Virus record (IMG/VR): IMGVR_UViG_2909303794_000001
Origin: a virus
Lineage: Duplodnaviria; Heunggongvirae; Uroviricota; Caudoviricetes
Strand: one strand, 5' to 3'
DNA length: 54,748 nucleotides
Made by a program: the position numbers. The first letter of the stretch is position 1. Each line of letters starts with the position of its first letter. Positions 6,001 to 9,000 of the stretch are shown here, piece by piece.

Positions 6001-9000
6001 TTTTCATCGCCAATAAAAGTGGCGATAGTGAATTTAGTCTGGATAGCCATAAGTGTTTGATCCATTCTTTGGGACTCCTGGCTGATTAAGTATGTCGATA
6101 AGGCGTTTCCATCCGTCACGTAATTTACGGGTGATTCGTTCAAGTAAAGATTCGGAAGGGCAGCCAGCAACAGGCCACCCTGCAATGGCATATTGCATGA
6201 TGTGCTCCTTATTTATACATAACGAAAAACGCCTCGAGTGAAGCGTTATTGGTATGCGGTAAAGCCGCACTCAGGCGGCCTTGATAGTCATATCATCTGA
6301 ATCAAATATTCCTGATGTATCGATATCGGTAATTCTTATTCCTTCGCTACCATCCATTGGAGGCCATCCTTCCTGACCATTTCCATCATTCCAGTCGAAC
6401 TCACACACAACACCATATGCATTTAAGTCGCTTGAAATTGCTATAAGCAGAGCATGTTGCGCCAGCATGATTAATACAGCATTTAATACAGAGCCGTGTT
6501 TATTGAGTCGGTATTCAGAGTCTGACCAGAAATTATTAATCTGGTGAAGTTTTTCCTCTGTCATTACGTCATGGTCGATTTCAATTTCTATTGATGCTTT
6601 CCAGTCGTAATCAATGATGTATTTTTTGATGTTTGACATCTATTCATATCCTCATAGATAAAAAATCGCCCTCACATTAGAGGGCAAAGAAGATTTCCAA
6701 TAATCAGAACAAGTCGGCTCCTGTTTAGTTACGAGCGACATTGCTCCGTGTATTCACTCGTTGGAATGAATACACAGTGCTTATTCGTACTAATAAAACA
6801 CCCAATTTTCTGTTTCTTGGTTGTGTCCAAAGTTATATTCAATATCTGGTGTTGATGTATCAATATTCTTCATACCATCAACAAGAGTTGATACAACAGC
6901 CAAATCTTGTTTGATTCTCATTAAATGGTATTTCTTCCGGCGCAATAAACTTTCAATGGCAAGTTTCTTCGTCGGGAATGCAAAAGATCTTTCTGCATTT
7001 TTTGCTACTTTCTTAATTGCATATCTATTTCTCCTTTGTTTCCATTCCTGTAACCACTGATTTGGTGCTGGTTTAAAATTAACAATCCAATGCGCAGGAA
7101 CCAACCATGCATAATGCTCTGTCTGATGAAAAGCTATATATTGAAGTGCGAATATTTTTATCCCATCTTCTTCAACTGTCGCCTGGAATCTCCAGAAAAC
7201 AGGCATTCCATCATGTTCAGTTTCTGATTCAGGAAAAGGTACGCTCCATGATTTTGTCATATCTCACCTCAAATAAGTGGTTTGCTGCCTAATTTCATTT
7301 TCTGGCGACCAACACAAGTCACCTCGCCGTCAGTTGTTTTGATTTCCGGTAGCCTGCCGCGTAAATGGCTACGTTTGGAAGACATACACCAGTTTCTGGT
7401 TGCTTATGTCCAAACTCATTCGCGTACACAATGGCCGCTCGCTCCAGATTGCGTCTGTATTCTTTCTGTTGCCAGATCACGTCCTGTGCCATGAACTTAA
7501 TTGGCTTAGCGTCTTCTATGCGCTCAGGCGTTTCGTGAGTATCTTTAGCCTGAATCTGCGCTCTGCTTAGAGTAGGGCGGTGTAATACTTCTGAACTTAT
7601 TGCTTCTTCGCGGGCCAGCACGCCGTTAGCTAATGCCTTTGCCTTTAAACGCTCACGACGACGAGAACGTGAATTGCCTTTGAACTGAGTTCTGCGTGTC
7701 ATATAGACCTCCTGATGAACTTTGGTGGTGTGGTAGGTGGGAGACCCATTTCGACCTGTTTCGGCCTACTTCAATTCGGCAATAGTCCCGCAGGCCTCGC
7801 CGCTTTACGTGCGACATATTCCCGTCCATGAACCCTTCACCACACCCCAAAGTTCACTTTGGTTATTGCGCTTTGTCAGCGCCGTAGATTCATATTCGAA
7901 TCGTTGTATATTCACCGCCCTGGTGAGTAGTGCGTCCTGCTGATGGGTGAACTTTATCTGAATGATAAATTAATGGCAATAGCAAAATGATAAATTCTCT
8001 TGGTTTTCAAATATCGTATTGATTCTTATGGTGTTTTATTTTGTTGTAGGAATTCGACAGGATAAATAAAGAGATTTGAGGGAGATCTGGATTGCGTTGT
8101 TTAGCAAGTTGTATCTATTTATTTTTCAACAAATACAATTGGTTATGTGTTTTTAGGTGTGGGGATCGTGAGGCAAAGAAAACCCGGCGCTGAGGCCGGG
8201 TTAATGCGTTAATGCTGGGGAGTGATTTTTTTGTTGTCTGTTGGCTGGGTATTTTGTGGCGGCGCTTGCAAAGTGGAAGGCTGTTGCAAAGGTGCGTGGT
8301 CTGACTTTAAAGCTGATACCAGCCCGGGAATCGCAACTATTACAGCGATAATGACACTAAAAATGGCTAATCGTATAGAAATACCCGACTGAACACCACT
8401 AATTGCGGTATTAACCCCTGTTATTTGTCCTTGAATTCCTTCGAATCTCCCATTAATTGCTTTTATATCGCCAGCAGCGCTATCCATCTTTCCATCGATC
8501 TTGGACGATAGAGAGCTTATGGCTGCATTAAGTGATGCAAATTGGACATTAACGCTTTCACGAGATAGAGCCATGTCAGCCCTAATGGAAGAAGCAATAG
8601 ACTCCATCTCTGCTTTATTAGCAGCTAAGCGAGCATCAAGTTCCTCTCTGCTGATCGTTCCCACTTCTTCCTCCGTTTGTGGCGGTTTTATGTAATTATT
8701 TTGCACCTTGGTGGGAGAATTATCAAATTCAGCCTCAAAATCGGAACCGCCAACAACCTTCAACCTCCGGCTTTCAGATATGTTGGTGTCTTGCTTTCCA
8801 TGATTATTTAAATTACTGTCGTCACTCATAATAGCTCTACGGTGAAAAATGATTCATTTTTATGAAGTTCATTTTTAGGGTCTTCATTATCTTGCAATAT
8901 CCCTATAACACTATACAGCCCTTTAGCTGGGACCCTAATTTCTTTCAATGTTACTATTACCTGTCCGCCAACCCCTGTTTCAAAATGGCTATCTTTCGTA

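Follow-up and report, generated by a model that had tools for sequence, protein, structure and literature searches.

This report concerns a small gene in the phage DNA IMGVR_UViG_2909303794_000001 (IMG/VR; Caudoviricetes). The stretch of 54,748 nucleotides (nt), analysed over its full length and termed the window in the following, represents a mosaic lambdoid phage close to the Shiga toxin (Stx)-converting phages. On its minus strand, between the antiterminator gene N and ea10, an open reading frame (ORF) of 156 codons occupies the position in which lambda and P22 carry ral and sieB. The ORF is a genuine, strongly conserved protein-coding phage gene, and an uncharacterised accessory early gene of the lambdoid N-cIII hotspot. 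The features of the locus are, from the promoter downwards:

7951–7979, minus strand: pL-like sigma-70 promoter, TTGCCA-17-TAAAGT, found by consensus scan (predicted function)
7868–7934, minus strand: nutL, by coordinate transfer from the 933W annotation (9614–9680)
7319–7702, minus strand: N antiterminator gene of the 933W/HK97 type, 127 amino acids (aa); Pfam N_peptide, expectation value (E) 1.9e-15; phrog_271, E 8e-39
7269–7322, minus strand: right-hand mosaic joint with a putative relic of a lambda-type N C-terminus, out of frame, ending at the ribosome-binding site of the ORF
7264–7270, minus strand: Shine-Dalgarno sequence GAGGTGA of the ORF, read directly; 3 nt from the ATG (GAGG core 6 nt), identical in HK97
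6790–7260, minus strand: the ORF under study; ATG start, 156 codons, TAG stop at 6792–6790
6746–6779, minus strand: 12-bp stem-loop CACTGTGTATTC-ATTCCAACGA-GTGAATACACGG with one mismatch, from RNAfold of the intergenic region; left-hand mosaic joint
6658–6687, minus strand: intrinsic terminator TTGCCCTC-TAATGT-GAGGGCGA plus T6; 8-bp stem with 5 G-C pairs, stem-loop at 6687–6666
6271–6639, minus strand: ea10 (DUF2528), the left neighbour; Pfam E 1.8e-47, 100% protein identity to lambda Ea10

A preliminary description of this DNA had placed a 156-aa ORF at 6790–7260, immediately downstream of N and upstream of a minus-strand terminator. These coordinates were exact: the reading frame is intact, opens with ATG on the minus strand and is served by a strong ribosome-binding site. 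N (7319–7702) indeed lies directly upstream, with a gap of 58 nt and in the same orientation as pL, and in sequence terms the terminator is present at 6687–6658. At 36% GC (guanine plus cytosine) about 7% of random codons are stops, and a probability of about 1e-5 per start was calculated for 156 open codons; thus, the ORF is beyond chance. Selection on the protein is purifying, with ratios of nonsynonymous to synonymous substitution rates (dN/dS) of 0.05 to 0.24. The ORF and gp45 of HK97 are separated by 6 nt differences, 5 of them synonymous and 1 causing an amino-acid change (dN/dS 0.05). The copies from Brenneria and Pectobacterium prophages gave 0.07 with dS near 1.1, and the copy of phage Bas81 compared with a metagenomic copy, both of the Bas81 type, gave 0.24. 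A gene on the opposite strand, as is the case for sieB, was rejected because substitutions were overwhelmingly synonymous in the minus-strand frame.

The sequence has long been known and catalogued; the feature itself is not new. The product is 99–100% identical to L0079/ST933Wp19 of 933W, vb_24B_11c of phi24B and gp45 of HK97, annotated as 'hypothetical protein' in all three records. It matches PHROG 1636 (function unknown) over its full length, residues 1–156 on profile positions 1–156 of 156 (E 2.7e-112). In 933W, phi24B and HK97 this is the same gene in the same N-gene-terminator unit with no sequence difference in kind, and membership in PHROG 1636 supplies a name, not a mechanism. About 11% of the complete E. 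coli genomes (597 of 5426) carried the gene, with up to 4 copies each, and the NCBI pipeline always left it unnamed. Among the matched Stx-converting phages it is carried by 933W, phi24B, H-19B and many Stx1a/Stx2a records. The idea of a plasmid leading-region gene, i.e. part of an anti-defence island, was dropped because only 11 plasmid records contained it, all scored as non-mobilizable; several of these resemble phage or chromosomal DNA filed as plasmids. The literature search yielded no papers for vb_24B_11c, L0079, phrog_1636 or, in the sense of this ORF, HK97 gp45, and a preprint on OLD/Oad2 was discarded as a lead because it concerns an unrelated, EaE-like protein. What the present analysis adds are the exact boundaries of the cassette, its predicted placement among the immediate-early genes, the connection with a much wider family of phage proteins and a structural model of high confidence.

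The boundaries were set by comparison with lambda. In blastn, 99% identity to lambda ran from 6780 leftwards through the hairpin, the terminator, ea10, cIII, kil and gam. The homology restarts 10 nt below the ORF stop, at a point which in lambda is 42 nt below the ral stop. This 99% identity to phage lambda covers the whole block 5535–6780, which extends from just below the ORF via ea10, cIII and kil into gam. The stem-loop 6746–6779 is positioned at this joint, about 10 nt below the ORF stop; in lambda the same stem-loop is just below ral. It had no Rfam match and might serve in processing or stability, or represent a recombination joint. At the other end the 51 nt from the N stop to the ribosome-binding site of the ORF read, out of frame, TCVGRQKMKLGSKPLI and a stop, to be compared with TCSGRQKIKGKSIPLI and a stop in lambda N; the relic frame reads DGEVTCVGRQKMKLGSKPLI and a stop versus ERGITCSGRQKIKGKSIPLI and a stop at the C-terminus of lambda N. 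The similarity is statistically weak (tblastn 64.7% over 17 aa, E 0.066) with a core in which 16 of 18 nt are identical, and HK97 has the same relic. Despite these statistics the relic is plausible because it is placed exactly where a lambda-type N would end, and it is probably a recombination remnant that marks the module joint. Taken together, the lambda homology at left and the N relic at right indicate that the ORF with its ribosome-binding site replaces sieB-orf28-ral of lambda, i.e. that it is a single-gene substitution cassette.

How this DNA travels is evident from two further comparisons. HK97 retains the N-gp45-terminator unit, and its 93% identity to the window extends from 8198 to 6658 and ends just past the terminator; therefore, pL, nutL, N, the ORF and the terminator travel as a block. 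With another lambdoid phage (L016) DNA similarity is limited to 7270–6788, which is the ORF alone. The window and 933W are collinear with 99.1% identity from 5001 to 7943, just upstream of nutL, where the homology ends; the immunity region beyond differs and the mosaic joints are sharp. The GC content of the ORF (36%) is below that of its flanks (46%) and of the window (51%), and at 14 of 15 loci the gene had a lower GC than its flanks. The label of an accessory gene, proposed earlier, fits the low GC, the L016 homology restricted to the ORF and the variable position of the gene in other phages.

The slot itself calls for a comparison with its usual occupants. The designation as a ral/sieB-equivalent slot was correct because the annotated lambda and P22 records place ral, sieB and, in P22, gene 17 there; the lambda-homologous flanks agree. 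The hint at restriction alleviation or exclusion that came with it stands as far as the slot is concerned; a link of the ORF to either function found no support, as similarity to Ral or SieB was absent. BLASTP and a hidden Markov model (HMM) of the family detected nothing among Ral, SieB, orf28, gp17, orf78, orf87, Abc1/2 and EaE from lambda and P22 (HMM at most 1.2 bits). For Ral, BLASTP gave no match to the lambda protein and the HMM scored −1.2 (P22) and −1.5 (lambda) bits. For lambda/P22 SieB the BLASTP E was 0.6 over 14 residues with HMM scores of 0.0 and −1.1 bits, and for P22 gene 17, orf78 and orf87 the HMM remained at −0.1 bits or lower, with no BLASTP match.

Could the ORF product replace Ral functionally, i.e. 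alleviate type I restriction (EcoKI/EcoBI-like) via the host modification/restriction complex? It fills the ral slot of lambda and P22 between N and the terminator upstream of ea10 and cIII, and shares with ral both the strand and the pL operon; its flanks are homologous to those around lambda ral, both products are small, soluble, early accessory proteins, and no ral or sieB homologue was found anywhere in the window. However, the product is 2.4 times larger (156 versus 64–66 aa), has a different predicted architecture and shares no sequence similarity with Ral. Its family extends to phages of unrelated hosts far from Enterobacteria, suggesting a more general target, and phi24B-type phages have already been reported with a lar-type restriction-alleviation gene (PMC4651098, SI Table 4). 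We therefore regard a Ral analogue as unlikely.

Transcription of the ORF appears to depend on pL. The pL-like site, just upstream of the transferred nutL, is the sole promoter-like site upstream of the ORF on the minus strand; the consensus scan detected none on this strand between 7260 and 7950. No convincing terminator was found between pL and the ORF, the sole match being a weak 5-bp hairpin within N (7400–7388). The first convincing terminator that transcription from pL would meet is that at 6687–6658, which is common to lambda, where it lies between ral and ea10, and HK97, where it follows gp45 and is annotated as 'putative terminator'. The N gene is annotated as such in 933W, phi24B and HK97. 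Thus the ORF has the orientation of pL and precedes the first convincing terminator, and a sequence scan shows no promoter-like site of its own. It would share with N an RNA that starts at pL, and be transcribed before the first intrinsic terminator is reached. Such transcription would imply that the product is made immediately upon infection or induction, and not in the resting lysogen.

RNA sequencing data for phi24B lysogens treated with norfloxacin are available in the literature. The identical gene, vb_24B_11c, was up 43-fold, and ssb, bet, exo and gam were up 79-, 89-, 98- and 137-fold, all with the same P value of 0.273 as vb_24B_11c (PMC4651098, SI Table 4). The prophage-expressed genes stk, res and vb_24B_13c changed 0.65- to 1.8-fold, and cI stayed near 1 (PMC4651098, SI Table 4). 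Because the P value is not significant, these data are supportive, not conclusive.

These expression features bear on the other occupant of the slot. A SieB equivalent would be a prophage-borne exclusion or abortive-infection gene shielding the lysogen from other phages. It would share with the ORF the slot used in lambda and P22, the low GC of an accessory gene and a cassette-like behaviour as in morons; in addition, one family member, described below, has its own TATAAT box and terminator. In lambda and P22, however, sieB is on the opposite strand, P22 annotates a separate sieB promoter, and SieB has hydrophobic segments. The ORF in the window is oriented with pL, lacks an own promoter-like site, a membrane segment and any similarity to SieB, and its expression is linked to induction (the 43-fold rise in phi24B) rather than constitutive in the lysogen. 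Furthermore, no credible match to PADLOC defence profiles was obtained and a homologue is present in a strictly virulent N4-like phage. A SieB-like function is thus improbable.

In a metagenomic lambdoid phage an N of another type immediately precedes the gene, and in a Cronobacter prophage it is about 750 nt downstream of N. Its position directly after N in 933W, HK97 and the metagenomic phage, and not far from it in Cronobacter, raised the question whether the product is a co-factor of the 933W-type N antiterminator. Yet the adjacent N proteins differ in type and length (84, 90 and 127 aa), and the gene is also located far from N and in phages without any N. We rejected this explanation as highly improbable; together with SieB-like exclusion it is the rival least compatible with the data. 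In the Cronobacter, Brenneria and Pectobacterium prophages a terminator-like hairpin directly upstream of the gene leaves no space for a promoter, which implies antitermination-dependent expression. In Brenneria, Pectobacterium and a metagenomic contig (L027) the gene is the last before xis-int; in Bas81 it is the first gene of a small operon that also contains ParB-like and RusA-like genes, and in Vibrio phage PvVp04 it follows a gene for a Cro-like helix-turn-helix protein. The neighbours differed from context to context and comprised recombination genes, C5 methylases, ParB-like, RusA-like and Rha-like genes, xis/int and an N4-type ATPase; no recurrent partner gene emerged across the contexts.

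A deviating arrangement was seen in a metagenomic phage contig (L029, 2919–3365), in which a member stands by itself within the tail-gene region, on the opposite strand. The gene is preceded at about 30 nt by a TATAAT box and followed at 35 nt by a 10-bp terminator, and its GC is 32% compared with 43% in the flanks, a textbook moron layout. Morons, as reportedly defined by Juhala et al. (2000) in HK97 and HK022, are extra genes flanked by their own promoter and terminator, often with an atypical GC. Like a moron, the ORF is a single-gene insert at a module boundary with a GC below its flanks and a terminator directly downstream; unlike a moron, it has no promoter-like site of its own and is linked to induction in phi24B instead of being expressed from the prophage. 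The full promoter-gene-terminator layout is realized only in the L029 copy.

The next question was to which protein family the product belongs. Matches to Pfam (at E ≤ 1) and NCBIfam were absent, and the only match among the defence profiles of PADLOC-DB v2, Cas1_II with 12 bits and E 0.018, was not credible. The earlier statement that no family was recognisable therefore holds: Pfam, NCBIfam, PDB sequences and PADLOC gave no credible match, and solely PHROGs of unknown function did. The sequence homology searches which had been proposed at that stage were run and retrieved relatives that were all uncharacterised, the closest being PHROG 1636. Close homologues (56–85% identity) came exclusively from phages and prophages of Enterobacterales. 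When 1.8 billion representatives were searched with the profile, 87 proteins were identified at E ≤ 1e-3, mostly of 120–160 aa. The wider family aligns over residues ~19–140 and shares the motifs Y-R, E-x-G, E/Q-T and K..K...R-F-A-F-x-T-K..A...L..RK..Q/H-L..L. The ORF as a query also matched phrog_13631 (E 8e-6), and an hhalign comparison of two subfamilies gave a probability of 99.2% (E 9e-20). By these alignments the ORF product is a member of a wider phage family of 120–160-aa proteins (PHROG 13631/25384 and related).

Four PHROGs without an assigned function, 1636, 13631, 25384 and 28215, account for the 66 members; each of the 66 aligned relatives likewise matches the PHROG 1636 profile, and no Pfam domain was found among them. 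Two relatives that seemed to have several domains, P0066 (940 aa) and P0080 (444 aa), were dismissed as low-complexity or repeat artefacts, and informative domain fusions in the family were not found. Members occur in the Pseudomonas phages 8P, Medea1 and Skulduggery, Vibrio phage PvVp04, E. coli phage Bas81 and Salmonella phage NX263, and in Marinobacterium and Pseudomaricurvus prophages. The strictly virulent N4-like Achromobacter phage phiAxp-3 contributes ADP65_00030 (HMM E 7.6e-9; phrog_13631 E 7.5e-51). A scan of viral contigs with the subfamily alignment retrieved 2 loci. Foldseek searches of BFVD, a collection of predicted viral structures, added 13 uncharacterised proteins at E < 1e-3 as structure-only matches; these include proteins of the Erwinia phage phiEa2809, Delftia phage RG-2014 and of Rhizobium, Sinorhizobium, Cellulophaga and Tenacibaculum phages. 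The family spans temperate and virulent phages of Proteobacteria; by predicted structure only it would also reach phages of Bacteroidota. The PHROG 13631/25384 proteins, e.g. ADP65_00030, are remote homologues which have the conserved motifs and the predicted core fold in common with the ORF product. They differ in length (120–150 aa), lack the 18 N-terminal residues and the C-terminal FGHNxETExWxF tail of the enterobacterial proteins, carry E instead of Q at position 46 and reside in different genomic contexts; all are uncharacterised.

The ORF product is a soluble, basic protein of 18.6 kDa with an isoelectric point (pI) of 9.1; its ends are acidic and the core residues 75–130 have a pI of 10–11.6. 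A transmembrane segment was not detected, in agreement with the preliminary description; the best 19-residue Kyte-Doolittle window reached 0.56. AlphaFold with only 20 close homologues gave a mean predicted local distance difference test score (pLDDT) of 60, and this model was discarded in favour of the run with the diverse 66-sequence alignment, which reached a pLDDT of 94.1 and a predicted template modelling score of 0.81. The model is an alpha/beta structure with a long beta-hairpin sheet. The strands comprise residues 19–30, 33–46, 50–55 and 83–86, followed or interrupted by short helices at 56–61 and 66–74 and a helix of 33 residues at 98–130; the C-terminal tail packs onto the body with high confidence. 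A basic loop carries the conserved K..K...R-F-A-F-x-T-K motif, and the long helix has a conserved basic/polar face. The PDB sequences contained no match, and no solved relative of the predicted architecture was detected.

The conserved polar residues are mostly basic, i.e. R24, K75, K83, K/R84, K87, R92, R108 and K109, and the median net charge of the family is +4. The long helix also conserves Q/H112 and H/R115. The sole near-invariant acidic residue, E46, is a Q throughout the enterobacterial subfamily, which disfavours a catalytic role.

The basic conserved core raised the possibility of a DNA-binding regulatory or architectural protein, e.g. one that assists recombination/excision or early transcription. 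The gene is immediately upstream of xis-int in three prophages that are independent of one another (Brenneria, Pectobacterium and L027), the PvVp04 copy is next to a Cro-like gene and the Bas81 copy leads an operon with ParB-like and RusA-like genes. The R-F-A-F-x-T-K-x-x-A motif presumably bears a superficial likeness to the strand-helix of the AP2/integrase arm-binding domain, which we take as a lead only; the domain itself, a three-stranded sheet with a helix, was found neither by profile nor by fold. We consider such a DNA-binding factor a minor possibility.

Similar weight is given to a modulator of host physiology of the Kil or exo-xis type, which would act on division, replication or the SOS response in favour of lytic growth. 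Many small pL genes modulate host physiology, as is established for Kil and CIII. The ORF is an early pL-operon gene in the company of kil, cIII and gam, and the wide host range of its family fits a conserved housekeeping target. On the other hand, similarity to any such protein is absent, there is no evidence of toxicity, and this proposal overlaps with the explanation favoured below and is computationally inseparable from it.

Some neighbouring elements deserve mention. The only Rfam match in the ORF and its surroundings was the cIII thermoregulator RNA (Lambda_thermo, 6153–6211, minus strand; 84 bits, E 3e-20), which confirms a lambda-like cIII leader. A DUF3024 protein of 113 aa, encoded at 9331–9672 (minus strand) on the repressor side of the immunity region, matches the PADLOC candidate defence family PDC-S43 (E 7e-42). 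For phi24B, expression of the equivalent gene, vb_24B_13c, has been reported in lysogens, and the DUF3024 protein is a better candidate for prophage-borne defence than the ORF. Between the repressor side and pL two genes with overlapping stops, 8209–8829 (minus strand, 206 aa) and 8826–9314 (minus strand, 162 aa), replace stk/res of 933W in a rexAB-like position. Both products match only function-unknown PHROGs (5820 and 5893); for that of 206 aa, Pfam gave weak matches of the coiled-coil type, and a C-terminal hydrophobic stretch was read from the sequence.

Which function, then, can be assigned to the ORF? We infer immediate-early timing, a binding mode of action and a role in counter-defence or takeover: the product may be a pL-driven early lytic-cycle binding protein which counters host defence or takes over host or DNA functions. 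We give this explanation a probability of roughly 40%. Most likely the product would act as a stoichiometric binder and not as an enzyme, because of the consistent positive charge, the conserved basic face and the spread of the family over unrelated hosts including a virulent phage. Its target would be a conserved, negatively charged (polyanionic) partner and not a narrowly specific one, i.e. a nucleic acid or a host or defence protein that handles nucleic acids, and through it the protein would protect or promote the DNA of the phage at an early stage of lytic growth. This could be a job of the same kind as that of Ral, accomplished by an unrelated mechanism. Counter-defence or takeover is preferred because of the slot and because the pL recombination region of lambdoid phages has been described as an anti-defence hotspot (bioRxiv 10.64898/2026.07.10.737580).

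Several points weigh against this explanation. All database names of family members are 'hypothetical', and the role as such is inferred. A positive charge is a weak indicator of binding to nucleic acids. Between N and the ORF, a Rho-dependent terminator may be present. The rise on phi24B induction is not significant in the authors' test (P = 0.27; PMC4651098). Finally, with its TATAAT box and own terminator within the tail-gene region the L029 copy looks autonomous; therefore, expression is not always tied to the early operon.

Nothing in these findings will surprise a specialist. About one in nine complete E. coli genomes, and Stx phages, carry a gene without a name, a domain or a structural relative. 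As it belongs to the first transcription unit after induction and occupies an anti-restriction/exclusion slot, it is a cheap and well-defined candidate for counter-defence or takeover. Should the gene have no phenotype, it would be one more conserved phage ORF of unknown function. Possibly, though this is the more doubtful proposition, the whole family constitutes early phage proteins of a new fold which counteract a widespread defence of the host or take control of a conserved nucleic-acid machine. The ORF would then be the first tractable member of such a family. By sequence, the family comprises lambdoid, N4-like and other phages of Proteobacteria; by predicted structure only, it would also include Ackermannviridae and phages of Bacteroidota. 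In Stx phages the protein would be made together with N from the very first transcript after induction, and it could influence the host range of these phages and the spread of toxin phages. If the role in counter-defence or takeover is true, it would give access to a family which is present in many unrelated phages.

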